Positions 1 through 13,998 of a DNA stretch of 13,998 nucleotides are shown piece after piece. The stretch lies in the IMG/VR virus record IMGVR_UViG_2740892233_000016, positions 1 to 13,998 of that record; one strand, given 5' to 3'. The notes beneath the pieces were generated by a model. The model saw only the letters and a list, made by a program, of their open reading frames with translations, was not told where the DNA came from and did no database searches. Origin of the DNA: a virus (taxonomy: Duplodnaviria > Heunggongvirae > Uroviricota > Caudoviricetes). The stretch's first letter is position 1, and each line of letters opens with the position of its first letter. Made by a program: the position numbers and the translations under genes.

Positions 1-1242
1 ATGGCGAGAAAAACACACCCATTAACCACAGTGCAGATCAAAGCAGCCAGACCAGCGCAAAAGGAGTACACCCTGCAGGACGGCGGAGGGCTTTTTCTCC
101 TGGTCAAACCGTCTGGATCAAAACTCTGGAGATTTTCCTACTACCGACCATCGGACAAAAAAAGAATATTGCTGAGTTTTGGATCGCTTGAAGATGTTTC
201 CCTGGCTGATGCCAGAAAACGCCGTAGCGAGTACAGGACGTTAATCAGTGCCGGAACTGACCCGCAGGACCACGAGAGGCAAAAAAGAGAGACAGAGGCC
301 CGAAGACAAGGGAACACGTTCGAAAATGTGGCGGCGGCATGGTACCAGGTGAAAATCAGCCAGAATCTGGCCCCCAACACGATTAAAGACATCTGGCGTT
401 CGCTGGATAAATATGTATTCCCGTTCATCGGCAACACGCCAATAGATACCCTCACCGCCCGAAGGTTCGTTGAAGTGCTTACCCCCATCAAGGAGCGCGG
501 CAACCTGGAAACACTCAAGCGGGTTTTACAGCGCGTTAATGAGGTAATGGATTACGCCGCCAACAGTGGGCTGATTGATGCCAATCCGGCTATGAATGTG
601 CGTAAGGCGTTTCCCTCACCTGTAAAAAAACATATGCCAACAATCCGCCCCGAACAGCTGCCCGAGCTTATGCAGGCTTTATCAGTATCGGCAACAGAAC
701 GGCAGACCAGATTACTGATTGAATGGCAGTTACTGACCGTAACCCGTCCCGCCGAAGCGTCATCAACGCGGTGGGATGAAATCAACCTGGACGCGAAGCA
801 ATGGACGATACCTGCCGGACGCATGAAGATGCGCAGGGATCACGTTATCCCGCTTTCCGGTCAGGCTATGGCGGTGCTGGAGGCCATGAAACCAATCAGC
901 CACCACCGCAATTACGTTTTCCCAAGTCTGAAAGACCCACAGCAGCCGATGAACAGCCAGACAGCTAACGCAGCATTGCGGCGTATGGGATTCGCTGGCG
1001 TGCTGGTGTCTCATGGATTACGCGCCATATTCAGCACAGCAGCGAACGAGGAAGGATTCGAGCCGGACGTAATAGAGGCGGCACTTGCCCACGTCGACAC
1101 CAACGAAGTTAGACGGGCATACAACCGGAGCAACTACATAGAAAAACGCATCGTGCTGATGCGCTGGTGGGGCGAATTTGTCGAGGCTGCGGCGACGGGC
1201 GTAACCCTCGCCAGTGGTAAAAGGGGTATCCGAGCCGTGTAG
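1..1242 (+). CDS. int: Tyrosine integrase, P4-like family
   Basis: 413 aa; N-terminus ...LQDGGGLFLLVKPSGSKLWRFSYY... typical of P4-type integrase arm-binding domain; C-terminal catalytic region with ...HGLRAIFSTAA... and ...AHVDTNEVRRAYNRSNY... (catalytic Tyr region). Stop TAG at 1240..1242. Confidence 0.93.
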   Translation: MARKTHPLTTVQIKAARPAQKEYTLQDGGGLFLLVKPSGSKLWRFSYYRPSDKKRILLSFGSLEDVSLADARKRRSEYRTLISAGTDPQDHERQKRETEARRQGNTFENVAAAWYQVKISQNLAPNTIKDIWRSLDKYVFPFIGNTPIDTLTARRFVEVLTPIKERGNLETLKRVLQRVNEVMDYAANSGLIDANPAMNVRKAFPSPVKKHMPTIRPEQLPELMQALSVSATERQTRLLIEWQLLTVTRPAEASSTRWDEINLDAKQWTIPAGRMKMRRDHVIPLSGQAMAVLEAMKPISHHRNYVFPSLKDPQQPMNSQTANAALRRMGFAGVLVSHGLRAIFSTAANEEGFEPDVIEAALAHVDTNEVRRAYNRSNYIEKRIVLMRWWGEFVEAAATGVTLASGKRGIRAV

Positions 1243-1319
1243 CTGTACAGAAAACCAGTAAAAACTACGAAAACCATGTAAAACCGTCGTATAATTGCAT
1301 CAAATTTAACGACAAGGCC

Positions 1320-1571
1320 GTGAAACATGAAACCGTTAAGATGCAAAAAAATATCAGATGCAATTGCGACGGGCTGCAACTGGCCCTGATGGTTCAGCAT
1401 GAATTTTGGTCAACCTACGATCCGGAGGACAGAACGACGGCCCCATCAAAAAAACAGGTAGTAGATTTTCTGGTATCCCGTGGCGCTTCCAGAAATCTGG
1501 CGGTAAGTATTGATAAGGTCGTACGTCCGGCATCTATGAAGATCGGAGGCAGGCCCAAAAAATGGCGGTAA
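1320..1571 (+). CDS. Hypothetical protein (83 aa)
   Basis: ORF between int and alpA, immediately followed by a clean intrinsic terminator; no recognisable family; weak RBS (AAGG). Confidence 0.35.
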   Translation: MKHETVKMQKNIRCNCDGLQLALMVQHEFWSTYDPEDRTTAPSKKQVVDFLVSRGASRNLAVSIDKVVRPASMKIGGRPKKWR

Positions 1572-1582
1572 CAATCCTGGAA

Positions 1583-1605
1583 GCGGCAGAAATGCCGCTT
1601 TTTTT
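1583..1605 (+). terminator. Rho-independent terminator
   Basis: GCGGCA-GAAA-TGCCGC hairpin followed by T7 run. Confidence 0.6.
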
Positions 1606-1634
1606 ATAATTCCATTTCAAATCATCAATATAAA

Positions 1635-1672
1635 AAACGGTGTATACCGTTTAAAAACGGTGGGAACTGTTT
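1635..1672. promoter_or_regulatory. Cluster of AAACGGT/ACCGTTT half-site repeats upstream of alpA (putative operator)
   Basis: AAACGGT(1635..1641), ACCGTTT(1646..1652), AAACGGT(1655..1661), ACTGTTT(1666..1672) forming overlapping inverted repeats about 70-100 bp upstream of the alpA start. Confidence 0.3.
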
Positions 1673-1738
1673 TTACCCATATCCGATGATTTACCGTATT
1701 TGTCACCGGAATACACCGGATTCACAAGGTAAATCACG

Positions 1739-1945
1739 ATGGAAGCAATCAGAAAAATTATCTTTCGCCAGGAAGTAAAAAAAATTATCCACATCAAGGC
1801 AGACAGCACGCTGCAAAGCATGATCAACGCCGGAGAATTTCCGCAGGGTTTTCGCGTTGGTTTACGCCGTCGCGGATGGTATGAGGATGATGTGTTGTCC
1901 TGGCAGAAAGAACGCGAAGAGGAAGCACGCGGAACGGCTGCTTAA
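1739..1945 (+). CDS. alpA: AlpA-family (prophage CP4-57-type) transcriptional regulator
   Basis: 68 aa; ...STLQSMINAGEFPQGFRVGLRRRGWYEDDVLSWQ... matches the AlpA helix-turn-helix signature (..AGEFP.P.K.G.R...W...V..W). Confidence 0.85.
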   Translation: MEAIRKIIFRQEVKKIIHIKADSTLQSMINAGEFPQGFRVGLRRRGWYEDDVLSWQKEREEEARGTAA

Positions 1946-2093
1946 CGGGTATCACAGATATGACAAACACGAAAAAAGCGGCCCCGATATGGAGCCGCCT
2001 TTCTGAACAATTAACCCGCTGCGCCTTATGTGTATGTGATCCCAAACATAAGCACGGGGATGATAGCCGCTATCAGGCTGGTGGGCAATGCAA

Positions 2094-2282
2094 TCAGTCT
2101 GGTTCAGTTCGTTGCCATACCTGCAATGAGCGCTTTTCCCTGTACTCTTTAAGGAATTGCTCAAGGGCAAAAGCACATGGCGCGAATCTTTCTGATTCAT
2201 GCTCTATCTTTCTGCGCCGTCTTTTCCGTGCCGGTGATAATGTTTTGGTCAATTCTTTATCGGTCATTGTGTTGTCCTGCAT
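2094..2282 (-). CDS. Hypothetical small basic protein (62 aa; alternative start at 2267 gives 57 aa with AGGA RBS)
   Basis: Minus-strand ORF downstream of Arc-like gene 1; contains RKRRRRK basic stretch; antisense frame on + strand is open (typical of real coding DNA). Confidence 0.4.
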   Translation of the reverse strand: MQDNTMTDKELTKTLSPARKRRRRKIEHESERFAPCAFALEQFLKEYREKRSLQVWQRTEPD

Positions 2283-2324
2283 AGCAATGCGCCGTAATAC
2301 CTCACACCACGGCGCTGATAGTTT

Positions 2325-2498
2325 TTATCCTTTGGGTTCTATGCCGCGTTGCTGTAATTCTTTGCGGAGAACGCGTTTAATCCAAGTGGCTAAAGATGTG
2401 TCGCCATCGGCCTTAGCTGCTTCTTCTAGCTGCGCTCTGAAGTCTTCCGGTAATCGCATTTGGTATGGAGGCGAACGTTTTTCTAATGGTGTTGACAT
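2325..2498 (-). CDS. Arc-like ribbon-helix-helix repressor (57 aa), module 1
   Basis: Not in the ORF track (<60 aa). Translation MSTPLEKRSPPYQMRLPEDFRAQLEEAAKADGDTSLATWIKRVLRKELQQRGIEPKG has the RHH pattern (beta strand ..MRLPEDF.. then two helices). RBS GAAGGG 8 nt upstream; start codon overlaps the divergent promoter/operator. Confidence 0.7.
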   Translation of the reverse strand: MSTPLEKRSPPYQMRLPEDFRAQLEEAAKADGDTSLATWIKRVLRKELQQRGIEPKG

Positions 2499-2538
2499 GG
2501 TAATTACCCTTCATTACTATACCTACATGGTAATTACC
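2492..2538 (+). promoter_or_regulatory. Rightward sigma70-like promoter (TTGACA-N17-TACTAT) with two copies of palindromic operator GGTAATTACC
   Basis: TTGACA 2492..2497, TACTAT 2515..2520; 14-mer ACATGGTAATTACC at 2495..2508 and 2525..2538 (palindrome cores 2499..2508 and 2529..2538, exactly 30 bp apart), overlapping spacer and +1. Confidence 0.55.
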
Positions 2539-2628
2539 ATTGTACTTGCCATTACACAAAAATCAACGCCCCGCAGTGCTGGGAACACATACGGGGCGTC
2601 TAACCAACAACGTAAACTAGGAGCCGTT

Positions 2629-3189
2629 ATGGTTGCCGTAAATCATATACCACACCTTGTACACACACAAACGGCCTTTGTGTGGCGTTTTCTGGCCCTG
2701 AATATCGGAGAAAAAAACCAGTTGATCGCCAGTGTCGAAAATAGCTATGATTCCCGCGCACCTCATAAAACGGGTGCCGGGATTGGCGTCCTGGGCAAAA
2801 CTGAAGCGCATAACACGCGCCCCGCGTGTTTTTTTGTGCCGCATAGTCACACCTTATCAATGGTGGGCTGTACGGGGGCGGAGCAATCCGCGCCGGTTTC
2901 TTCAGTGTCCGGTTACGCCAACCCTGTACAGTCCGCCACCAGCGAAATTGGCGTTTCCGGTGGCGGTTATCTTAACCACACTGAGGAGGCTGCCAACATG
3001 GCTACTATCCCTACCCTTGTACATTCTCAAACCGCCTTTCTCTGGCGCTTTATCATCTTTGGCGCGTCAGAACATCAAATCATCCACGTAACCGCCTGGA
3101 CGGAACGCGAAGCGCGTAGCCGTTGCCCGTCCGGTTGTGTTGCTGTATTCGCCGCCCGTATTCGTCAGGAGGTGTGCCATGTGCAATAA
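2629..3189 (+). CDS. Early-operon protein with internal tandem repeat of a small domain ending ...FAARIRQEVCHVQ (possibly Icd-like family; unverified)
   Basis: 186 aa from ATG 2629 with strong RBS AGGAG (2619..2623); two internal copies of motif ...LVH(T/S)QTAF(V/L)WRF(L/I)... ; the ORF-track 409-aa ORF is an upstream run-through of this frame. Confidence 0.6.
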   Translation: MVAVNHIPHLVHTQTAFVWRFLALNIGEKNQLIASVENSYDSRAPHKTGAGIGVLGKTEAHNTRPACFFVPHSHTLSMVGCTGAEQSAPVSSVSGYANPVQSATSEIGVSGGGYLNHTEEAANMATIPTLVHSQTAFLWRFIIFGASEHQIIHVTAWTEREARSRCPSGCVAVFAARIRQEVCHVQ

Positions 3190-3400
3190 AACCACACCGG
3201 ACGCAGCAGCCGCCGCGCTCACTACGCTGATGCACGCGCTTATCGATATTGAATGCACTGCAGAGCTTGCGCAGGGAGAAGAACAGAAAGACCGGACACA
3301 GTTCGCCCTGGAATGTATCCGATACATCGCAACGCGGTCGCTGAATGACGCTAAAAATATTCTTGTTGCTGATTGTGAAAATGGGGGGGGTTATGCGTGA
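3179..3400 (+). CDS. Hypothetical protein, N-terminal half of module-1 gene 2 (split relative to module-2 homolog)
   Basis: ATG 3179 overlaps stop of upstream gene (ATGTGCAATAA), RBS AGGAGG; homolog of N-terminal half of 4481..4945; terminated just after a G8 tract (3383..3390). Confidence 0.5.
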   Translation: MCNKTTPDAAAAALTTLMHALIDIECTAELAQGEEQKDRTQFALECIRYIATRSLNDAKNILVADCENGGGYA

Positions 3401-3614
3401 TGATCGTTTTAATTCCCTGAAACAAGAATTTTCCGGCGTTCCTGATGATGCGGCTGATGCGCTTTCGTCAATATCTGAAATTATGCGGGTGGCTTTTTTC
3501 TTTCTTTGCACTGATGAGCACAGAGATACAGGGCTAAATATTCTTGATATTGCCGCTAACTATGCTGATTTCGTGACAGAAGCTGTTTTAAGAAAAACAA
3601 CGGACGGGGATTAA
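3393..3614 (+). CDS. Hypothetical protein, C-terminal half of module-1 gene 2 (MRDDRFNSLKQEFSGVPDD...)
   Basis: Starts at ATG 3393 with the G8 tract acting as Shine-Dalgarno; near-identical at nucleotide level to 4713..4800 of the module-2 fused gene. Confidence 0.5.
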   Translation: MRDDRFNSLKQEFSGVPDDAADALSSISEIMRVAFFFLCTDEHRDTGLNILDIAANYADFVTEAVLRKTTDGD

Positions 3615-3615
3615 T

Positions 3616-3849
3616 ATGCGTGATATTTACCACGAAACAATAGACCGCGCATTTAGTGCCCTTGCTTACGCTGAAGGTATGTACGAAATATTGCGCATAT
3701 GGCTTGAAACACTTGGCGACAATGAACGCGACAAACAAAAATCAAGAATTGCCACGGCATTAATAACGCTTCTTGATCCTGTAATAATGGAACTGCAAGA
3801 AATAGATCTATTGCACGACAGATATAACGAACAGCACACCGGAGAATAA
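3616..3849 (+). CDS. Hypothetical protein (77 aa), module 1
   Basis: MRDIYHETIDRAF...; paralog of 4938..5171 (about 85 percent aa identity); start overlaps the preceding stop (TAATATG). Confidence 0.6.
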   Translation: MRDIYHETIDRAFSALAYAEGMYEILRIWLETLGDNERDKQKSRIATALITLLDPVIMELQEIDLLHDRYNEQHTGE

Positions 3850-3873
3850 AAATAATGAAACTTAAATATTCTG

Positions 3874-3883
3874 NNNNNNNNNN
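3874..3883. other. Run of 10 N (gap or masked bases) at junction between module 1 and module 2
   Basis: Directly seen; truncates a gene start MKLKYS... (ATG 3855) that is the paralog of 5177..5476. Confidence 0.9.
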
Positions 3884-3905
3884 TACACCACGGCGCTGAT
3901 GGTGA

Positions 3906-4085
3906 TTACTCTGGTTCTTTGGCCTTGCGCCGCTGGCGATATTCAACTTCTCGTTTTAATGCTGCAGTAACAAATTGCCCCGTACTTTCGCCAGGCATTT
4001 TTACCGCCTCAACATTGTTCATAACTTCATGCGGAACCCTTGCCGCAACGGTTTGTGATTTTGCGTTTACTGCTTTTGTCGCCAT
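3906..4085 (-). CDS. Arc-like ribbon-helix-helix repressor (59 aa), module 2
   Basis: Not in the ORF track (<60 aa). Translation MATKAVNAKSQTVAARVPHEVMNNVEAVKMPGESTGQFVTAALKREVEYRQRRKAKEPE; RBS GAGGGG 8 nt upstream; divergent from the module-2 promoter. Confidence 0.65.
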   Translation of the reverse strand: MATKAVNAKSQTVAARVPHEVMNNVEAVKMPGESTGQFVTAALKREVEYRQRRKAKEPE

Positions 4086-4135
4086 GTGGTGTACCCCTCA
4101 TAAAAAACAAATGCAGTATGCAGGAAAAAAAATAA

Positions 4136-4187
4136 GTGTTCAACACTTGACGTGTTTAACACCTGGGTTTAAATTGGTGTTCAACAC
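4136..4187 (+). promoter_or_regulatory. Rightward promoter (TTGACG-N17-TAAATT) with three copies of near-palindromic operator GTGTT(C/T)AACAC
   Basis: Sites at 4136..4146, 4152..4162, 4177..4187; -35 TTGACG 4147..4152, -10 TAAATT 4170..4175. Confidence 0.5.
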
Positions 4188-4284
4188 CTTGTTGGCGCAA
4201 GGTGCAGAAACGACGAAACCCGGCAGTGCGCTAACACTAACCGGGCTTCTAACCACCAACGATAGCGAAAGTATCGAGGTAGCT

Positions 4285-4491
4285 ATGAGAAATCATACCA
4301 CACACCCGCAAGGGCGGGACTCGCACAACCTGAATAAATACATCTGGCGTTTTATCGCCCTGAGCACGGCACAACCGCGCGTGATTACCATTGAGGCCAC
4401 CAGCGAACAGGAAGCACGCCAGCAATCTCCGGCTGGCTGCGTGATGGTATTCGCTGCCCGTATTCGTCAGGAGGTGTGCCATGTGCAATAA
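4285..4491 (+). CDS. Small protein ending ...FAARIRQEVCHVQ (single-domain paralog of 2629..3189; possibly Icd-like)
   Basis: 68 aa from ATG 4285 (RBS GAGG); C-terminal 25 aa nearly identical to C-terminus of 2629..3189; the ORF-track 190-aa ORF is an upstream run-through crossing the promoter. Confidence 0.55.
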   Translation: MRNHTTHPQGRDSHNLNKYIWRFIALSTAQPRVITIEATSEQEARQQSPAGCVMVFAARIRQEVCHVQ

Positions 4492-4945
4492 CATCCGTCC
4501 GGACGCAGCCGCCGAAGCCATCATAACGCTAATGCACGCGCTGATTGATATTTCTGTTATCGCAGACATGGCGCATAAGCACGCCACCAGTGAAACAGAA
4601 TATGCCGGGGCTTTCGTTCCTCATTCGCTGGCGGTTATGCAACTTAGTGCGGATATGGCGCTGAATGAGGCCAAAGCCATCCTGATTGCTGATTGTGAAA
4701 ATGGGGGGGTTATGCGTGATGATCGTTTTAATTCCCTGAAACAGGAATTTTCCGGCGTTCCTGATGATGCGGCTGATGCGCTTTCGTCAATGCCAGAACT
4801 TATTAGAGCGGCTTTTTTCTTACTTTCCACGAGAGAATATAAATCAACGGGGCTTGATGTACTGAATATCGCCGCCGATTATGCGGAATATGTGGCAGAG
4901 GCGCGTTATAGAAGAAAATTTCCTGAGGATGTAAGCCATGCGTGA
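4481..4945 (+). CDS. Hypothetical protein (154 aa), module-2 gene 2 (fused form)
   Basis: ATG overlapping upstream stop, RBS AGGAGG; reads through a G7 tract (4703..4709) where module 1 has G8. Confidence 0.6.
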   Translation: MCNNIRPDAAAEAIITLMHALIDISVIADMAHKHATSETEYAGAFVPHSLAVMQLSADMALNEAKAILIADCENGGVMRDDRFNSLKQEFSGVPDDAADALSSMPELIRAAFFLLSTREYKSTGLDVLNIAADYAEYVAEARYRRKFPEDVSHA

Positions 4946-5171
4946 TATTTACCACCAAACAATAGACCGCGCATTTCTTGCACTTTCTCACAGTGAAAAC
5001 ATGCTGGAAATATTGCGCATATGGCTTGAAACACTTGGCGACAATGAACGCGACAAACAAAAATCAAGAATTGTCACGGCATTAATAACGCTTCTTGAGC
5101 CTGTAATAAATGAGTTGCAGGAAATAGAGACATTGCACGACAGATATAACGAACAGCACACCGGAGAATAA
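4938..5171 (+). CDS. Hypothetical protein (77 aa), module 2
   Basis: MRDIYHQTIDRAF...; overlapping start/stop with the upstream gene. Confidence 0.6.
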   Translation: MRDIYHQTIDRAFLALSHSENMLEILRIWLETLGDNERDKQKSRIVTALITLLEPVINELQEIETLHDRYNEQHTGE

Positions 5172-5176
5172 AAATA

Positions 5177-5476
5177 ATGAAACTTAAATATTCTGGCTTA
5201 ACTGCCAGTGGCAACACTCACCCTAAATTTACGCGCGGTGATATTTACCGCGACCAGTACGGCGGCACGGTAATGATTAAGGGCGTGGCGGGACGGTGCG
5301 TAACTTACCGCCGTGAAGGTTACGAATATGATTGCGTGATGCCTGTTTATCAGTTCCGGCGTGATTTTTCTCTGGTACAGACCGCGCCGCATAACGTGCC
5401 CACCAGCAACGCCAGGGCACGGGCAAACATCCAGAAGCTGAAAACCATGATTAACGGATTCAGGGGCAAGAAATGA
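5177..5476 (+). CDS. Hypothetical protein (99 aa), translationally coupled to the rep-like gene
   Basis: Stop overlaps the rep start (ATGA at 5473..5476); the first 6 codons are duplicated at 3855..3873. Confidence 0.55.
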   Translation: MKLKYSGLTASGNTHPKFTRGDIYRDQYGGTVMIKGVAGRCVTYRREGYEYDCVMPVYQFRRDFSLVQTAPHNVPTSNARARANIQKLKTMINGFRGKK

Positions 5477-6873
5477 AAAGCGCACCGAACTTAAAAAAAC
5501 AGCCTTACGACAAGATGACCGAAGTCATTATTTTTGCGGGTAGTGATGCCTGGGCACATGCGAAACAGTGGCAGGAACAGGACGGGCGACTGGCTGGCGA
5601 TAATGTGCCTCCCGTTGTGCTGGCTGATGATCAACTGGATGAACTGGCAGACCTGAGAATCATCGACGAGGGGCGCTATTGTGTCCGGCTGTACAAGGCA
5701 GGCCACATCAGGCCATCAAATATTAATGCCATTGCGCACAAGCTGGCGGCGGCGGGTGTAACTGATGCGAATTATTACCCCGAAGGGATGCACAGCCATA
5801 TGCGGGAGAACTGGCGCGAATACCTGGAACGGGTGCGCGGGAAAGAGCCGGCGGAAGAAAAAAACCACCAGCGAAAAACCACGCTACCGATGAGCGTTGG
5901 ATCTACCGGATACGACACGCAACTGGATTACGTGGTTAAGGGGATTATTCCGGCGGTATCGCTATGCAGCATATACGGGGCTAGCGGGTCCTATAAATCA
6001 TTCCTTGCCGGATCGTGGGCGTGCCATGTTGCCACTGGTCGCCAGTGGGGAGGCCGCAGGGTTGCACATGGTGCGGTTCTCTATGTGGTTGGTGAAGGCG
6101 GTATAGGTGTTCCGCGTCGTGTAAAAGCCTGGGAGGTTGTGCACGATGAGCAGGTGAAAAATCTGTATCTGGTAAACCGCCCCATCTTTCCGGCTGCCCC
6201 GCTTGATGTTGATGAAATGGTTATCGCTGCCCGTCAGGTGGAGCGGGAAACGGGTAAACCTGTACGCATGATTATTCTGGATACGCTGGCGCGTTGCTTT
6301 GGTGGGAATGATGAAAATGATTCCCGTGATATGGGGGCGTTTATCCGTGGTTGTGACGAACTGAAACGACGCACAGGGGCCACGGTGCTGGTGGTTCACC
6401 ATTCCGGCAAGGATGAGACGAAAGGCGCGCGCGGTTCCAGTGCATTTCGTGCTTCGCTGGATGCTGAATACCGGATACGCAGGGAGGACGCAGGAAGCGA
6501 AGCGCTGGTTATCTCATGCACCAAAATGAAGGACGCGGAGGAACTCAAAGAAGCCGCATATGACTTACGCGTGGTGGAGCTTTTTACCGACGCTGACGGT
6601 GAATTAATCACGTCGCTGGTGGTGGTGGATGATCCGCGCCCTCCTGTTGAACTGGAGCGCATCGAGGAGGCAGGGAACAAGACGGAAAACCATACCGCGC
6701 TATGGGGGTGCATCCGTTCACGCACACAGAACGGCGACAAGTGCACGATCCCGCTGTTACGTGATGACATGAAAAAGCTGGGGTATGAAATGAAAAACTT
6801 CCGGCGCTGGCTGTACAAGCTGGAAAAAGATGGGGTTATTCGTATCGATGGGGATGATGTAGCGCCGCTATAA
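5473..6873 (+). CDS. RepA-like AAA ATPase / replicative helicase of the satellite (AAA_25-type)
   Basis: 466 aa; Walker A-like GASGSYKS, Walker B-like ...RMIILDTLARCF..., ...VLVVHHSGKD... motif typical of RepA/DnaB-like RecA-fold helicases; iterons begin at its stop codon. Confidence 0.8.
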   Translation: MKSAPNLKKQPYDKMTEVIIFAGSDAWAHAKQWQEQDGRLAGDNVPPVVLADDQLDELADLRIIDEGRYCVRLYKAGHIRPSNINAIAHKLAAAGVTDANYYPEGMHSHMRENWREYLERVRGKEPAEEKNHQRKTTLPMSVGSTGYDTQLDYVVKGIIPAVSLCSIYGASGSYKSFLAGSWACHVATGRQWGGRRVAHGAVLYVVGEGGIGVPRRVKAWEVVHDEQVKNLYLVNRPIFPAAPLDVDEMVIAARQVERETGKPVRMIILDTLARCFGGNDENDSRDMGAFIRGCDELKRRTGATVLVVHHSGKDETKGARGSSAFRASLDAEYRIRREDAGSEALVISCTKMKDAEELKEAAYDLRVVELFTDADGELITSLVVVDDPRPPVELERIEEAGNKTENHTALWGCIRSRTQNGDKCTIPLLRDDMKKLGYEMKNFRRWLYKLEKDGVIRIDGDDVAPL

Positions 6874-7063
6874 AAGTGAGGAGCAAAAGCGAGGGGGATA
6901 GAAAGAGGGCCAAAATTAGCCCGCTCTCCCTCACTTTTCGACCTGTATACATCCTCAAAAGTGAGGGGTAAAAAAATACTTATGAAACACACACATAGAA
7001 AAACCGAAAATCCCAACTGCGACGAAGTGAGACGCTTGAAAAAGTGAGGCGAAAAAGTGAGAG
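6873..7063. repeat. Iteron array AAAGTGAG(G/A) (putative replication origin)
   Basis: Direct copies at 6873, 6958, 7042, 7055 (plus GAAGTGAGA 7024 and degenerate AAAGCGAGG 6885, AAAGAGGG 6902) and one inverted copy CCTCACTTT 6929..6937; AT-rich stretch 6968..7010 between them. Confidence 0.6.
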
Positions 7064-7073
7064 GTTGCGAGAA

Positions 7074-7293
7074 ATGACCCAAAAACGCAGAGACAGAACA
7101 GAGCCAAAATATAAAGCGTTAGACATGACTGAGCACACCTTAAAGGTGGCAATCAGAACGATAGACCGCCACACGCGGGAAGGATACGCGAAGGAACATC
7201 CCGACCTGATAAGCGCATTCATGACCACGGCGGCGGCAAACTTTGCCACGCTGACAGAACGGGAGATTGCCGAAGCGGAACAGGTAACAACCA
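7074..7293 (+). CDS. Hypothetical protein, 3' end obscured by N run
   Basis: ORF from ATG 7074 (MTQKRRDRTEPKYKALDMTEHTLK...) running into the N run at 7294..7303; true stop unknown. Confidence 0.35.
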
Positions 7294-7303
7294 NNNNNNN
7301 NNN
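7294..7303. other. Run of 10 N (gap or masked bases)
   Basis: Directly seen. Confidence 0.9.
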
Positions 7304-7319
7304 CCGGAGAGGTGGAATT

Positions 7320-7730
7320 ATGACGGCACAGATAGCCGCTTACGGGCGGCTGGTGGACGACCCGCAGGTAAAACAGACCAGCAAGGGCACACCGATGACG
7401 CTGGCGCGTATGGCGGTATCTTTGCCATGCAGCCAGGCACAGGACGGACAGGCGACGTTATGGTTATCGGTCATCGCATTTGGCAAACAGGCCGACTTCC
7501 TGGCTAAACATCAAAAAGGCGATGTTGCCAGCGTATCCGGCACGATGCAGGTAAGCCAGTGGACCGGACAGAACGGAGAAACGCGGCAGGGCTGGCAGGT
7601 TATCGCAGACAGCGTAATCAGTGCCCGCGCGGCACGTCCAGGCGGGAACAGACGCAAAACCACAGGCACACAGGGTAATCAGCCACCAGCGGGAGGCGAT
7701 GACCCTTACGGTGATGATATTTCGTTCTGA
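7320..7730 (+). CDS. ssb: Single-stranded DNA-binding protein
   Basis: 136 aa from ATG 7320 (RBS GGAGAGGTGG); OB-fold pattern aligns with E. coli SSB (..GRLVDDPQVK.. / ..WLSVIAFGKQADFLAKHQKGDVASVSG..QVSQWTGQNGETRQ..), acidic C-terminal tail ...DDPYGDDISF. Confidence 0.85.
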   Translation: MTAQIAAYGRLVDDPQVKQTSKGTPMTLARMAVSLPCSQAQDGQATLWLSVIAFGKQADFLAKHQKGDVASVSGTMQVSQWTGQNGETRQGWQVIADSVISARAARPGGNRRKTTGTQGNQPPAGGDDPYGDDISF

Positions 7731-7740
7731 GGGGGTGACG

Positions 7741-8013
7741 ATGGTACATGACCGCATAGCGGAGGAACTGGAGGCGAAAGGCTTTTACCGGAGGGCGGCG
7801 GCGCGATGGGGTGAAGTCATGCAGCTGGTGGAGACAGACAAGGAACGGCATCACATCACGATGCGACGGCTGGAATGTTCAAGGAAGGCACAGAGGGCAC
7901 CGGAGCCGCCGGATAATTTCGGAGACCTGAAAAAGGCAGTCGATCGCACTTATGCCGAAATGGGTATAGATGGTGCTGGTGATGAAATATGGCGCAATTA
8001 CCAGGACAGCTAA
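7741..8013 (+). CDS. PerC-like transcriptional regulator
   Basis: 90 aa; N-terminus MVHDRIAEELEAKGFYRRAAARW... resembles the PerC-family N-terminal signature (recalled from memory; needs HMM confirmation). Confidence 0.55.
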   Translation: MVHDRIAEELEAKGFYRRAAARWGEVMQLVETDKERHHITMRRLECSRKAQRAPEPPDNFGDLKKAVDRTYAEMGIDGAGDEIWRNYQDS

Positions 8014-8019
8014 TCAAAC

Positions 8020-8043
8020 AGCCGGAGAAATCCGGCTTTTTTT
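8020..8043 (+). terminator. Rho-independent terminator (AGCCGGA-GAAA-TCCGGCT + T7)
   Basis: Perfect 7-bp stem, GAAA loop, T-run. Confidence 0.65.
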
Positions 8044-8139
8044 GCACCAGTTGAAACGGTATGGCGCATTACCGGGTTTTCGTCACGGTCAGGCATAGTT
8101 ACTATCTGAAACAAACAGACACAACAGAGGAAAAAAACA

Positions 8140-8364
8140 ATGCCGATGAAATTTGATGAGATATTAAAACAGCGTGATAAATACCATGCTGACAACATGG
8201 AGACGATGAGCATCAATGATTACCGCGCATTCCTGGAGACGGGCGCACTGATTGAAAAGGATCAGCATGGTTTTGTGAGATGTGCTCTATCCGGTGAAAT
8301 GCTGGCGGTAAATCCTGAACAGATAGATGCATTGATAGAATTTCTGAAAGAGATCAGAGACTGA
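8140..8364 (+). CDS. Hypothetical protein (74 aa)
   Basis: RBS GAGG upstream of ATG; followed by two terminators. Confidence 0.5.
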   Translation: MPMKFDEILKQRDKYHADNMETMSINDYRAFLETGALIEKDQHGFVRCALSGEMLAVNPEQIDALIEFLKEIRD

Positions 8365-8383
8365 GCCAGCACACAGCACACAT

Positions 8384-8406
8384 AGCCGGAGCAATCCGGC
8401 TTTTTT
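8384..8406 (+). terminator. Rho-independent terminator (AGCCGGA-GCAA-TCCGGCT + T6)
   Basis: Near-identical to the hairpins at 8020 and 10658. Confidence 0.65.
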
Positions 8407-8412
8407 GCGCCC

Positions 8413-8454
8413 AAAAAAAGCCCGATAAGGTCAGAGGGTTCTTATCGGGCTTTT
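8413..8454. terminator. Bidirectional terminator-like hairpin (A7 - GCCCGATAAG...CTTATCGGGC - T4)
   Basis: 10-bp perfect stem with 11-nt loop, flanked by A-run and T-run. Confidence 0.5.
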
Positions 8455-8510
8455 GCATATGAGGTTTTTGGATGCACTGGCGTTCGTGATCGGGATAATC
8501 ATTTCATAAT

Positions 8511-8580
8511 TTGCAACATAACTCAATATCATTGCATAAAATGCAATTCTGATTATAATCAGGACTGGATGAACATCCAG
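8511..8580 (+). promoter_or_regulatory. Late (morphogenesis) promoter region: TTGCAT-N16-TATAAT embedded in three perfect palindromes
   Basis: ATTGCATAAAATGCAAT (8531..8547), CTGATTATAATCAG (8549..8562, contains TATAAT), CTGGATGAACATCCAG (8565..8580); the downstream operon starts at 8616. Confidence 0.5.
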
Positions 8581-8615
8581 TTATGATTTTTTAAGTCGAA
8601 GAGGAATTTCTTACT

Positions 8616-8822
8616 ATGGCTGAAGAGAAAAAAGGCGGTGTTTCGGTGTACATAAGCCCCGACATCGTGAAGGCGCTCAAGGAACGCCACCAGCAGAACG
8701 TAAAAGCAGGCATTGCGGCAGGACTTGATCCGCTGGCGATGGTTGAGCCGTCAACAGGCTGGCAGGTCCGCGCCTATTTACGCGCGGCGCTGGGCATGAA
8801 TCAGACGCATGGAGGTGAATAA
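8616..8822 (+). CDS. Hypothetical protein (68 aa), translationally coupled to the capsid gene
   Basis: Stop TAA overlaps capsid ATG (TAATGG); RBS GAGGAA upstream. Confidence 0.5.
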   Translation: MAEEKKGGVSVYISPDIVKALKERHQQNVKAGIAAGLDPLAMVEPSTGWQVRAYLRAALGMNQTHGGE

Positions 8823-9877
8823 TGGCAGGCAAAGCAACGGCACTTAACACTAACCAGCTTTTCGCGTACCTGAATCGCGGGGATATTGCAGAATTTAAAT
8901 TCAGTCCGCTGTTTACCACGCTGTTTTTCCCGAACGTGGCGACCTTCAACACCCAGAACATCATGCTGGACACCCTGGACATTGAAGAGGTTACGATGTC
9001 AGCGTTCTGTTCGCCTATGGTGGGTAGTCAGGTCCAGCGCGATAAAGGGTACGAAACCAGCACGATTAAACCAGGCTACATGAAACCCAAACACGAAATC
9101 GATCCAACAAAAACCATCATGCGCATGGCTGGAGAAGATCCGGCACAGCTTAACGATCCTACCTATCGCCGTATGCGCCTGATTACTGGCAACATGCGCC
9201 GCCAGATAAACGCCATTAAGGCACGCGTGGAATGGCTGGCGGTGAATGCGGTAACGACCGGAAAAAACCTCATTGAGGGCGAAGGCATAGAACGCTATGA
9301 AATCGACTGGAAGATCCCGGAAAGCAATATCATAGAACAGGCTGACGGTAAAAAATGGTCTGAGCTGGATAAAGAAACACACGATCCAATCTATGACATC
9401 GAGCTTTATGCTGATCAGGGCAATTGCCCCGCAAACGTCATGATTATGGGCGCTGAAGTATGGCGCACGTTACGCAGCTTTAAAAAATTCCGCGAACTGT
9501 ACGACCTTTCCCGTGGTTCAGAATCCGCCGCAGAACTGGCCTGTAAAAACCTGGGTGAAGTGGTGAGCTTTAAAGGCTATCTGGGCGATATTGCCCTTGT
9601 CGTCTATTCCGGCAAATACACTGACAGCGACTGCACCGAAAAATATTTCCTTGAGCCTGATTTGCTGGTCCTGGGTAACACCAACAATAAAGGGCTGGTG
9701 GCCTATGGTGCGATTATGGATCAGGAAGCGGTCAGAACGGGCGCAACGCAAAACATGTTTTACCCGAAAAACTGGATTGAGGACGGCGATCCGGCGATTG
9801 AGTACGTGCAGACGCACAGCGCACCGCAGCCGGTACCGGCAGATATTCGCAAATTTGTTACCGTCAAAATTGGTTAA
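8822..9877 (+). CDS. Major capsid protein, lambda gpE-like
   Basis: 351 aa; collinear similarity to lambda gpE: FKFSPLFTTLFF vs FKFDPLFLRLFF; KPGYMKPKHEIDP vs TPGYVKPKHEVNP; EDPAQLNDPTYRRMRLI vs EDPQNLADPAYRRRRII; SFKGYLGDIALVVYSGKY vs SYKGMYGDVAIVVYSGQY; FYPKNWIEDGDPAIEY..HSAP vs RYPKNWVTTGDPAREF..QSAP. Confidence 0.9.
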   Translation: MAGKATALNTNQLFAYLNRGDIAEFKFSPLFTTLFFPNVATFNTQNIMLDTLDIEEVTMSAFCSPMVGSQVQRDKGYETSTIKPGYMKPKHEIDPTKTIMRMAGEDPAQLNDPTYRRMRLITGNMRRQINAIKARVEWLAVNAVTTGKNLIEGEGIERYEIDWKIPESNIIEQADGKKWSELDKETHDPIYDIELYADQGNCPANVMIMGAEVWRTLRSFKKFRELYDLSRGSESAAELACKNLGEVVSFKGYLGDIALVVYSGKYTDSDCTEKYFLEPDLLVLGNTNNKGLVAYGAIMDQEAVRTGATQNMFYPKNWIEDGDPAIEYVQTHSAPQPVPADIRKFVTVKIG

Positions 9878-9889
9878 CGGGGGGATTCT

Positions 9890-10225
9890 ATGGACACTCC
9901 ATACATTGAGTTATTTGCAGGTAGTCAGCAGGTATCCACGACGCTGGTACATTTTGCTGCTGATGCTGGCGTTATTCAGGAATTTACCCCGCTGATGCTG
10001 GCGGAAAATGGCGAGTTTAAGCCGTGGGATGGTCAGGAATCTGGCAAGGCTGTTTATCTGACCTCGTACCCCGTGGACACGTCGACGCAGAAATCAGCAC
10101 AGTGCTACAAGACGGGGATATTCAATATTGCCGCCGTTAACTGGCCTGAGAGCGCCGACACCGACGCGAAAAAATGCGCCGCCTTTGCGGGTTCTGGCGT
10201 ATCCGTTCAGCCGCTGGCGCGATAA
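9890..10225 (+). CDS. Head decoration protein, lambda gpD-like
   Basis: 111 aa; TPLMLAENGEFKPWDG... and ...CYKTGIFNIAAVNWPESADTDAKKCAAFAGSGVSVQ parallel lambda gpD TPLMLDTSSRKLVAWDG... and ...[36 protein letters not shown]. Confidence 0.85.
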   Translation: MDTPYIELFAGSQQVSTTLVHFAADAGVIQEFTPLMLAENGEFKPWDGQESGKAVYLTSYPVDTSTQKSAQCYKTGIFNIAAVNWPESADTDAKKCAAFAGSGVSVQPLAR

Positions 10226-10237
10226 GCAGGGGGAACG

Positions 10238-10651
10238 ATGGCAACGAATGAAAGTATCATGACGCTACCGCTGGCGAGTAAATTTAAAGCCGAAGCGCGG
10301 GCAATGGCTGACAGAGGTTTATCAACCTACGAGGCCGTATATCAACTTAACAGCCTGGAAGAGAAGGACAAGCCGCGCGCTGATGCGATTATGGCGCTTC
10401 ATGAATCTGACGACTATCAGCCGCTGTTACGTGCAATGGCAAACGTGCCTTGTATTGATGTTGATACGGCTAAAAACATCCTGAACATGACCATAGAGCA
10501 GGAACGCCCGAAGGTTGCACCAGAGCTTACCGCAGCCTTTGAAAACTTTATGGACATGCACAGCCCACAAGCCGTATCAGCTGGCATGGCATACGATGGC
10601 AGAAACCCGGGCGATGACGGCGACATCGATCGCATACTGAAAACCATCTGA
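10238..10651 (+). CDS. Hypothetical protein (137 aa) in the capsid module
   Basis: RBS GGGGGAACG; follows gpD-like gene; ends at a terminator; no recognised family. Confidence 0.55.
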   Translation: MATNESIMTLPLASKFKAEARAMADRGLSTYEAVYQLNSLEEKDKPRADAIMALHESDDYQPLLRAMANVPCIDVDTAKNILNMTIEQERPKVAPELTAAFENFMDMHSPQAVSAGMAYDGRNPGDDGDIDRILKTI

Positions 10652-10657
10652 GACAAG

Positions 10658-10679
10658 GCCGGAGAAATCCGGCTTTTTT
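10658..10679 (+). terminator. Rho-independent terminator (GCCGGA-GAAA-TCCGGC + T6)
   Basis: Third copy of the same hairpin sequence. Confidence 0.65.
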
Positions 10680-10703
10680 GCGGGTCCTTTCCGGCATATG
10701 GAC

Positions 10704-10745
10704 CTGTTACGGGGCGGAGACCTCGCGGATTTTCGCTATTTATGA
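10704..10745 (+). other. cos site 1 (lambda-type cosN, variant cohesive-end sequence GGGCGGAGACCT at 10712..10723)
   Basis: CTGTTACG-GGGCGGAGACCT-CGCGGATTTTCGCTATTTATGA matches the lambda cos junction GTTACG-GGGCGGCGACCT-CGCGGGTTTTCGCTATTTATGA with 2 mismatches; lies about 145 bp upstream of the Nu1-like gene, as in lambda. Confidence 0.7.
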
Positions 10746-10818
10746 GCCTTTTCAGGGGGGTGGTGGTGGTTTTGTTGTTTGATCTATCTTTATGAATGAA
10801 AAGGGAAAGATGCAAGCA

Positions 10819-10854
10819 ATACACCAACCTGAAGCAGTAATTAAGTTGGTGTAT
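10819..10854. repeat. Perfect 10-bp inverted repeat ATACACCAAC-N16-GTTGGTGTAT abutting the Nu1-like start codon
   Basis: Directly seen; right arm ends 2 nt before the ATG at 10857. Confidence 0.6.
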
Positions 10855-10856
10855 TA

Positions 10857-11399
10857 ATGAAATCTCATCTGATGAACAAAAAAAACATGGCGAAAAGCTG
10901 CCGTGTAAGTGCGACAGCGTTCGACAAGTGGGGAGTAACTCCCGTTGAGCGTAAAGGCCGTGAGGCGTTTTATGATGTTGCCAGCGTGATAGAAAATAGG
11001 GTTAACAATGCAATTAGCCAGCTTATAAACGACAAAGGCGAGATTGACGATGATGAACTTTTACGAGTCAGGATCAGATTACTGACAGCACAGGCAGAGG
11101 CGCAGGAACTTAAAAACGATCGCGATCGCGGTGACGTGATTGATACTGAGTTTTGCCTGTACGCGCTTTCAAAGCTGGCGAGTCAGATTTCATCAATCAT
11201 GGACATCCTCCCGCTTACTATGCAAAGGAGCTTCCCACAGATTACCCCCGCCATGCTGGACAGGCTTAAAAGGGAAGTGGTTAAAGCCTGTAATGCCAGT
11301 GCCAGAGTTGCCGACAACCTCCCACAGATACTGGCTGATTACTTGAAAGAAACAACCGGAAACGTACCGGAAAAGTTGCTACAGAAGAAAGGCGAGTAA
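10857..11399 (+). CDS. Terminase small subunit homolog, lambda Nu1-like (possible packaging-redirection factor)
   Basis: 180 aa vs lambda Nu1 181 aa; LTAQAEAQELKNDRDRGDVIDTEFCLYALSKLASQISSIMDILPLTMQRSFPQ vs lambda LTRAQADAQELKNARDSAEVVETAFCTFVLSRIAGEIASILDGLPLSVQRRFPE; N-terminal DNA-binding region is similar but more diverged. True start may be the second ATG (10872). Confidence 0.85.
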   Translation: MKSHLMNKKNMAKSCRVSATAFDKWGVTPVERKGREAFYDVASVIENRVNNAISQLINDKGEIDDDELLRVRIRLLTAQAEAQELKNDRDRGDVIDTEFCLYALSKLASQISSIMDILPLTMQRSFPQITPAMLDRLKREVVKACNASARVADNLPQILADYLKETTGNVPEKLLQKKGE

Positions 11400-11427
11400 C
11401 AGACGCGCAATTATTGAACAAAAATGA

Positions 11428-11489
11428 GAAAGGATCTGATAATGGCATTTTCTGGCTAAAATGCCTCGTGTCAGATCCTTTCTTTTTTT
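11428..11489 (-). repeat. Nested inverted repeat GAAAGGATCTGA...TCAGATCCTTTC + T7 (cosB R-element-like for cos site 2; could also act as terminator for the Nu1-like gene)
   Basis: 12-bp perfect outer arms (11428..11439 / 11471..11482) with inner hairpin GGCATTTT-CTGGCT-AAAATGCC; same position and architecture as the lambda cosB repeat GAAAGGAAACGACAG...CTGTCGTTTCCTTTC relative to cosN. Confidence 0.55.
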
Positions 11490-12537: not shown

Positions 12538-13998
12538 TTATTCATCTTTCGGCGCAGAATGCTGGCGACCAAAAATCACCTCCATCCGCGCACCGCCCAG
12601 CATGCTCTCTCCGGCGACGATTTTACCCTCATATTGCTCGGTGATTTCGCGGGCTACCGCCAGCCCTACACCTTGCCCAGGGCGTAAAGTATCAACCCGT
12701 TGACCACGGTCGAAAATGACCTCTCGCTTGCTTAATGGAATACCGGGGCCATCATCCTCGACCACAATATAGAGATGCTCGTCGGTTTGCCTTGCAGAAA
12801 TTTCGACAAACTCGAGGCAATATTTACAGGCATTATCCAGCACGTTGCCCATCACCTCGACAAAATCGTTCTGCTCACCGACAAAGCTGATCTCTGGCGA
12901 AATATCGAGAGAGATATTGACCCCTTTGCGTTGATACACTTTGTTCAGCGCTGAGGTGAGATTGTCCAGCAGTGGGGCGACCGGATGCAGCTCGCGGCTG
13001 AGCAATGTCCCGCCGCGCATACTGGCACGATGCAGGTAGTAGCCAATTTGCTGTGAAATGCGGCTGATTTGCTCCAGCATTACCGGCTCAGCATCACTGA
13101 CGCTCATCTTTTCACTACGCAGAGAACGCAGCGTACTTTGCAGCACCGCCAGTGGCGTTTTCAGACTATGGGTCAGGTCGGTGAGCGTCGTACGGTATTT
13201 GTCGTAACGTTCGCGTTCACTTTTTAACAATCGGTTCAGGTTTCGTACCAGACTGGTCAGTTCTCGCGTTGTGGCTGGATTGAGCAATTCGCGGTTATGT
13301 TCTTCCAGTTCGCGGACTTCTTTTGCCAGGGCTTCGATGGGGCGTAAACTCCACCAGGCGGCGACCCACAGCAGCGGGATCACTAACAGCAGATTGGCTG
13401 AGAGCACATAGATAAACCAGCTCCAGACCATATAGGAACTTTTTAGCTCCACCGGAATGGTATCCACCACCACAATGGTTAATTTTGGCATCCGCGATGT
13501 TGCCGGGTAGACGTTTACTGCCACCGAGTGGGTCATCTCCGCGTCGTCATCATCTTCCCGCACTTCCTGCAACTGTTGCTGTATCGAATGATCTCCACTC
13601 AGCAAGAGGCTGGTATCGTTAACATCCGCTTCAATTTCATGAAAACCATTCGATTTCAGCCAGTCAGGCTGGATCATCTTCATCAGCCAGGGCACGTCAC
13701 GTTGCGCCCATAAAAGCTGCCCGTTCTCATCATAAATTAGCGTCATGGTGGGGCTTTGCTTGTCGATATTTTCGGGTAACTCGACATGCAACTTATTGTT
13801 TTCCCACTTCGCAAGGGTATAGAACAGATTGCTCTCGCCACGTAACAGCCGAAACGTAGTTTTATCGAAACTGACGCTATAACCGATCAGCGCGACCATT
13901 CCGTAGGCAAGCGAAAGCACCAGTACTACCGCAGCCGTTGCCAACAGAAAACGTACCCGCAGTGAGAGCGGGAAAAAAAGACGCAGTAATTTTTTCAT
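12538..13998 (-). CDS. phoQ: Sensor histidine kinase PhoQ
   Basis: 486 aa; translation matches E. coli PhoQ along its length as recalled ([60 protein letters not shown]... , H-box ...[13 protein letters not shown]..., ATP-binding domain ...DDGPGIP...[12 protein letters not shown]...). Confidence 0.97.

Follow-up and report, generated by a model that had tools for sequence, protein, structure and literature searches.

What a run of guanines is doing at the junction of two small genes, in what looks like a phage satellite, and what follows when its length changes by a single base, are the questions raised by the locus described here. The DNA analysed (the window, 13,998 nucleotides in all) carries this junction twice, with G8 at 3383-3390 and G7 at 4703-4709, both read directly in the window sequence; the copies are referred to below as island 1 and island 2 after the elements in which they lie. 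A sequence-only reading of the window had claimed that the G8 tract splits the gene that the G7 tract leaves fused, the upstream frame ending in ADCENGGGYA with a stop at 3398-3400 and a downstream open reading frame (MRDDRF) starting at the ATG at 3393. The sequence, the open reading frames and the RefSeq gene models confirmed both points. The features concerned are as follows.

3383..3390, plus strand: G8 homopolymer at the 3′ end of the upstream gene, read as codons GGG GGG GGt; length modulo 3 is 2, hence split
3179..3400, plus strand: upstream gene (N-half), 73 aa, phrog_5146, ending GGGYA and stop TGA (3398-3400); RefSeq WP_001372127.1
3393..3614, plus strand: downstream gene (C-half), 73 aa, phrog_24341, with its own ATG at 3393, beginning MRDDRF; RefSeq WP_001204070.1
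3393..3400, plus strand: 8-nt start/stop overlap of N-half and C-half, ATGCGTGA, a layout typical of translational coupling
2998..3189, plus strand: Icd-like gene of island 1, directly upstream and overlapping the N-half start
3616..3849, plus strand: third small operon gene of island 1, 77 aa, phrog_2196
4703..4709, plus strand: G7 homopolymer at the homologous position in the second island, encoding a Gly-Gly linker; length modulo 3 is 1, hence fused
4481..4945, plus strand: fused gene, 154 aa, phrog_2512, RefSeq WP_000336167.1, consisting of N-half, GlyGlyVal and C-half and containing ADCENGGVMRDDRF
4712..4714, plus strand: internal ATG (Met78 of the fused gene), the C-half start codon in split alleles, with the Shine-Dalgarno (SD)-like G run still 5′ of it
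4285..4491, plus strand: Icd-like gene (NF033153) of island 2, directly upstream of the fused gene
4938..5171, plus strand: third small operon gene of island 2, 77 aa, phrog_2196

The G8 tract ends 2 nt 5′ of the downstream ATG, and the ATGCGTGA motif recurs at the next gene pair of island 2 (4938-4945). The genes belong to an early operon with the order Icd-like, N-half, C-half, third gene, DUF4222, RepA helicase. RefSeq annotations of closed genomes likewise show a pair of 73-aa proteins for one island and a single 154-aa protein for the other. The tract yields inconsistent gene calls, as the fused, N-half and C-half forms of this one locus are filed in three PHROG families and under several RefSeq proteins. 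A run of seven or more Gs is by itself unremarkable in the window, since three or more were found in 38 of 200 shuffled sequences; what counts is the homologous junction position in both copies.

The sequence-only reading had treated the two copies as paralogous modules (1 and 2), and this was not borne out: they are homologous parts of two elements that meet across an assembly gap. Window positions 1-3873 are 99.7% identical to an island at tRNA-Pro/yejM, and positions 3884-11478 are 99.6% identical to a different island adjoining roxA. In the closed genome of strain MBT-5 these two sites are ~480 kb apart. Both contig ends at the gap fall in DNA common to the two islands, and the adjacency of the two halves was absent from all closed E. 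coli genomes searched, in which the best "full-length" matches of the window were island 2 in permuted order, at 93%. A tandem arrangement of paralogous modules within one island was rejected on the basis of the gap, the separation and the lack of this adjacency in any closed genome; the scaffold join mimics a tandem duplication. The features that define the two elements are listed here.

3875..3884, unstranded: N10 scaffold gap joining contigs of two different chromosomal islands
1-1242: integrase of island 1, within the window
5473-6873: AAA_25/RepA-type helicase of island 2
8822-9877: lambda E-like capsid protein of island 2
9890-10225: D-like decoration protein of island 2
10857-11399: Nu1-like small terminase (TerS) of island 2
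12538..13998, minus strand: phoQ sensor kinase gene, complete; as chromosomal flank it pins down the island 2 insertion site

Judged by gene content, both elements look like Enterobacterial PICI-type phage satellites. Following the description of this type (PMC10085698), an integrase, a replication protein, a capsid-morphogenesis gene and a small terminase were found, and tail and lysis genes were not. In closed genomes, an integrase, a RepA helicase, a small terminase and a capsid gene are present in each of the two islands, the island 2 integrase lying upstream of the window's extent; the island 2 portion of the window also encodes SSB and PerC. In these respects the islands resemble the PICIs EcCICFT073 and EcCIEDL933, which share the integrase, RepA-type helicase, PerC, capsid gene and small terminase.

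Two Rfam matches above the gathering score, isrK (66 bits) and C4 antisense RNA (77.6 bits), lie at 2758-2834 and 2856-2943 (plus strand), directly upstream of the island 1 Icd-like gene. The arrangement resembles that of P1 immI (c4-icd-ant) and of the P4-like and Gifsy isrK-C4 early regions; island 2 gave no Rfam match to either RNA at the gathering threshold. An uninterrupted 409-aa open reading frame (1960-3189, plus strand) runs over an Ash-family domain, both RNA matches and the Icd-like gene. The RefSeq version of this region consists of pseudogene fragments and a 63-aa Icd-like coding sequence, and a 310-aa "Icd-like" protein is annotated in another island (L006). What sets the present locus apart from the P1, P4-like and PICI comparators is its two small genes, which have no assigned function in the libraries searched and occur in no phage record searched.

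Could the G8 of the window be a homopolymer error of sequencing or assembly in a draft genome, the true state being G7 or G9? The sequence-only reading had allowed for this, the window does derive from a gapped draft scaffold (N10 at 3875-3884), and some assemblies have homopolymer errors at the G tract itself. Against this, the identical G8 allele with its flanks (an 88-nt context) was present in ~34-43 closed genomes, at least 1000 contigs encoded its exact 73-aa product, which RefSeq lists as a separate protein, and no feature singles out the window's assembly. The G8 variant is thus not private to that assembly, and an error at this position is highly improbable.

A pair of assemblies of E. 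coli Nissle 1917 derivatives (L008 vs. L009) illustrates such errors at this site. Over 1.46 kb they differ solely by A8 to A7 and G8 to G7. Reading the second change as within-strain variation was rejected because the sole other difference is also a homopolymer deletion, and the two differences are probably homopolymer errors of long-read assembly. The EcN_Sk record, in which both A8 and G8 are contracted, also has a "frameshifted" Icd-like pseudogene. Part of the variation among "complete" genomes is assembly error, and the Nissle case is a warning for surveys of tract length built on them.

We determined tract lengths among homologous islands from the C-terminal tails of N-half homologs and counted, on each of the two protein backgrounds, the contigs that carry each exact protein sequence in a collection of 15 billion proteins. 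These counts, which for island 2 cover G6-G10, are our most robust numbers for tract length.

G6: N-half tail ENGGLCV...; 5 contigs (island 1 background), 11 contigs (island 2 background)
G7: joint ENGGVMRDDRF, fused; 258 contigs (island 1), at least 1000 contigs (island 2)
G8: N-half tail ENGGGYA; at least 1000 contigs (island 1), 547 contigs (island 2)
G9: N-half tail ENGGGLCVMIVLIP; at least 1000 contigs (island 1), 179 contigs (island 2)
G10: joint ENGGGVMRDDRF, fused; 152 contigs (island 1), 6 contigs (island 2)
G11: N-half tail ENGGGGYA; 47 contigs (island 1)
G12: N-half tail ENGGGGLCV...; 8 contigs (island 1)
G14: N-half tail ENGGGGGYA

Among homologous islands, lengths from G6 to G14 were found on otherwise identical backgrounds. 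The length variation is real. On both backgrounds the counts drop monotonically from the mode in a single-peaked distribution with no 3-nt periodicity, and such smooth spectra are what a hotspot of mononucleotide slippage should produce. There is no visible preference for any frame, in a comparison that is biased against the fused form, since an exact match was needed over 144-155 aa for fused and 73-86 aa for split proteins and the fused counts are consequently underestimates. The missing frame preference is also compatible with condition-dependent selection.

Closed genomes gave a concordant series at the DNA level. Among 5,426 of them, identical 40-nt flanks on each side enclosed G7 in 1 genome, G8 in ~34-43, G9 in ~120-129 and G10 in ~14-23. 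In the island 2 context G7 was dominant (~113 exact matches and ~230 with one SNP, O157:H7 included) and G8 was present in at least 15 genomes. Ranges are given because the counts at 99% identity or above from short BLAST queries are inflated by partial perfect matches, from ~9 for the first copy (module 1) to more than 100 for the second (module 2). The variation extends to closely related strains, as G8, G9 and G10 all occur in O26:H11 and O111 strains. Variation in length on the same background is what slipped-strand mutation predicts.

In the DNA of four closed genomes, G8 or G9 was found within otherwise near-identical islands, and each of two flanking haplotypes carried G8 in one case and G9 in another. 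The haplotypes are separated by 8 SNPs within 22 nt of the third small gene (3788-3809), in islands that are otherwise ~99.7% identical, and this cluster has the look of gene conversion from a different island copy. For this four-haplotype pattern, gene conversion of the 3788-3809 patch could be an alternative to recurrent slippage.

Islands of this kind are present in about one-sixth of closed genomes, and of the single positions in E. coli satellite islands the tract is one of the more variable. An exact-pattern scan of one genome per species matched Shigella flexneri only, and a literature search on phase variation by homopolymers in prophages of E. coli yielded no paper on the present locus. 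In UniRef, the name given to the exact G8 N-half protein comes from strain CFT073.

We then considered what the run contributes to translation. It occupies the SD position of the C-half gene while encoding the last glycines of the N-half, and the sequence-only reading had taken it for the ribosome-binding site of the MRDDRF open reading frame. Predicted pairing with the 3′ end of 16S rRNA was -11.1 kcal/mol for G7-G12. Neighbouring genes with AGGAGG sites gave similar values, -11.6 to -12.1 kcal/mol, and the run pairs more strongly than most of the remaining starts that were scored, five of which lie at -5.7 to -7.2 kcal/mol. Position and predicted pairing energy support the proposed role, and the tract is plausibly the ribosome-binding site of the downstream gene. 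With 2 nt separating the run from the ATG, the spacing is tight for an SD sequence unless the 5′ part of the run serves.

The context is in keeping with this assignment. At every junction of the operon the SD sequence lies within the end of the upstream gene, and most junctions also have a start/stop overlap, one having its ATG just past the stop instead. In an island that lacks the tract (Ecol_316), an extra 121-aa gene stands between N-half and C-half, and the C-half again follows a G-rich SD sequence, CAGGGGGGTAAACATG. Runs of G6 occupy the SD position at other genes as well, at window positions 9870-9889, 5′ of the decoration gene that starts at 9890 (AACGGGGGGATTCT-ATG), and at 1490-1495 of island L006 (CAGGGGGGTAAAC-ATG). 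Using a G run as ribosome-binding site seems habitual in these elements.

The two proteins have few relatives. When 1.84 billion cluster representatives were searched exhaustively and without profiles, just 50 clusters (at 50% identity) were returned. Most of the more remote ones consist of an N-half-like or a C-half-like protein on its own, ~75-84 aa long, with neither the glycine run nor the tract. In-frame fusions of the two are joined by CENGG(G)VMRDDRF in 109 of the 120 best hits, and the remainder of those 120 are single-substitution variants of the same joint. Since the distant relatives are separate and the fusions are all joined at the tract, these data argue that two genes are the older arrangement and that the tract gave rise to the fusion.

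Purifying selection acts on each half (dN/dS of 0.37 and 0.39 between the two islands). An AlphaFold2 model of the fused protein, weak overall (mean pLDDT 59.8), predicts a helical N domain and a helical C domain joined by a low-confidence segment (residues 72-101) in which the tract-encoded glycines would sit. Neither half had a significant match in Pfam, NCBIfam, PADLOC or PDB sequence profiles, PHROGs offered solely "unknown function" families for the locus, and tblastn against 50,697 phage records found no match to the two small genes. The idea that N-half, C-half and the third gene are tandem duplicates was dropped, as BLASTP gave no alignment among them and the junction motif alone is common to them.

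Fusion/fission ("Rosetta-stone") pairs, in which the same polypeptides are separate in some genomes and one chain in others, usually indicate joint action. The pattern at this locus suggests that the N-half and C-half proteins act together. It differs from the usual pairs in being recurrent within one species by single-base change, where those are rare and ancient events. Such repeated fusion would argue that two uncharacterised 73-aa proteins cooperate and offers a handle on the PICI early operon.

Taken together, the evidence favours a slipped-strand hypermutable tract that serves as SD sequence and linker and whose frameshifts are buffered, a reading to which we assign a probability of roughly 0.7. 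The G run would be a mutable mononucleotide tract at the junction of two small, tightly packed early-operon genes of E. coli/Shigella PICI-type satellites, and replication slippage would change its length heritably. By sequence, tract length modulo 3 gives a fused frame, a split with an 8-nt overlap or a split with a 29-nt run-in, and would set the fate of ribosomes arriving from the upstream gene. With G7 or G10 they would read through into the downstream frame and make a single chain, N-GlyGly(Gly)-Val-C. With G8, G11 or G14 they would stop at the TGA of ATGCGTGA, leaving an N-half that ends in YA. With G6, G9 or G12 they would stop 29 nt into the downstream gene, and the N-half would acquire a 9-residue out-of-frame tail, LCVMIVLIP.

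Throughout, the C-half would keep its own ATG and the SD-like G run and be translated either independently or by coupling. Because start codon and SD sequence are retained in every frame, both moieties would be expected always and covalent linkage alone would change, perhaps together with the stoichiometry of the N and C moieties. If frameshifts are buffered in this way, the mutable tract can persist and all lengths can circulate, and buffering fits allele counts that show no 3-base periodicity. We infer that the frame state is nearly neutral, and the variation looks tolerated as opposed to being a proven on/off switch. E. coli is mismatch-repair proficient, and switching at the tract is probably much slower than at classical contingency loci.

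A different use of the run would be recoding, with ribosomes (+1 on G8, -1 on G9) or RNA polymerases slipping on it to yield fused and split products at a programmed ratio. The run would let tRNA-Gly re-pair perfectly in either direction and is itself SD-like, and the fused frame is open in every allele. A programmed frameshift site had been one suggestion of the sequence-only reading, and it drew no support here. A downstream stimulatory structure is absent, the predicted fold of 3391-3470 being indistinguishable from shuffled sequences (z = 0.19); a hairpin pairing the G run with AAUUCCC was likewise no better than shuffles; and where the shift would occur the A site holds neither a stop codon nor a slow one. 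Dedicated recoding sites conserve an out-of-frame arrangement and the length of the run, whereas tract length here ranges from G6 to G14 and many alleles are already in frame in the genome. For E. coli, efficient slippage by RNA polymerase is known mainly from long A/T runs. Recoding is very unlikely on these grounds. The locus shares with the programmed frameshifts of lambda G/GT, dnaX and prfB a slippery run and a short and a long product that depend on reading frame, but here the change of frame is genomic and heritable.

The same length series bears on adaptive phase variation, in which the tract would stochastically toggle the proteins between one chain and two subunits, or shift the N:C ratio, and selection would keep it mutable. 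The forms would then differ in activity, for example in induction, helper-phage interference or effects on the host cell. An uninterrupted G run has been kept in two lineages whose flanks are ~64-80% identical, where synonymous changes could have stabilised it; all three frames are common; and single serotypes contain G8, G9 and G10. On the other side, there is no OFF state, as the downstream open reading frame has an ATG and an SD-like run in every frame. The allele spectrum follows length and not frame, the SD role also explains the tract, and function searches on the proteins found nothing. We consider this explanation unlikely. The earlier suggestion of slipped-strand phase variation stands in one part, the heritable length series, which fits slippage, and fails in the other, ON/OFF switching, as both open reading frames are kept in all frames.

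A more specific form of the idea, a contingency switch of the satellite within a C4/isrK-controlled early operon that toggles between a two-subunit pair and a fusion (or alters their ratio), seems slightly more doubtful still. If it held, PICIs in a clonal population of E. coli would gain diversity in induction, in interference with helper phages or in effects on the host cell, and a simple-repeat bet-hedging device would reside on a phage satellite in a mismatch-repair-proficient enterobacterium.

Returning to the buffered SD/linker tract, its likeness to known systems is divided. Homopolymer contingency loci have been described for tracts of Bordetella pertussis (PMC1891110) and simple sequence repeats of Neisseria meningitidis (PMC5084427). 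With those of Neisseria, Haemophilus, Campylobacter, Helicobacter and Bordetella the locus shares a poly-G run in or near coding sequence, a length that varies between strains and shifts the frame, and slipped-strand mispairing as the likely cause. Of the hallmarks of contingency loci, a mononucleotide run in or next to coding sequence and length variation on the same background were found here, and an ON/OFF outcome was not. Unlike at those loci, the frameshift fuses or splits two genes, the downstream start is kept and nothing is switched off, and the site lies on a phage satellite in mismatch-repair-proficient E. coli. Translationally coupled junctions of phages and operons (ATGA or ATGnnTGA) are matched by the 8-nt ATGCGTGA overlap and by an SD-like sequence in the 3′ end of the upstream open reading frame; they differ in that the SD sequence here is a pure G run, long enough to mutate, so that the junction drifts between frames. 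The locus is contingency-like in its mutational mechanism, a coupling junction with a mutable SD sequence and a recurrent fusion/fission pair. It would show how a G-rich ribosome-binding site in a gene overlap can turn into a mutable, tolerated point of fusion and fission; if the frame states differ in function, it would be a rare case of repeat-mediated switching in E. coli.

Two minor features of island 2 were also recorded. A terminator-like hairpin of 30 nt (GCCGGAGnAATCCGGC and then a run of T) occurs in three copies between its genes, at 8016-8045, 8380-8409 and 10653-10682 (plus strand). Its SSB-like gene is annotated as frameshifted in a closed genome (L002, 9439-9848); in the window, a 228-aa open reading frame with a GTG start (7044-7730, plus strand) covers the gene, with the SSB domain limited to residues 97-191.
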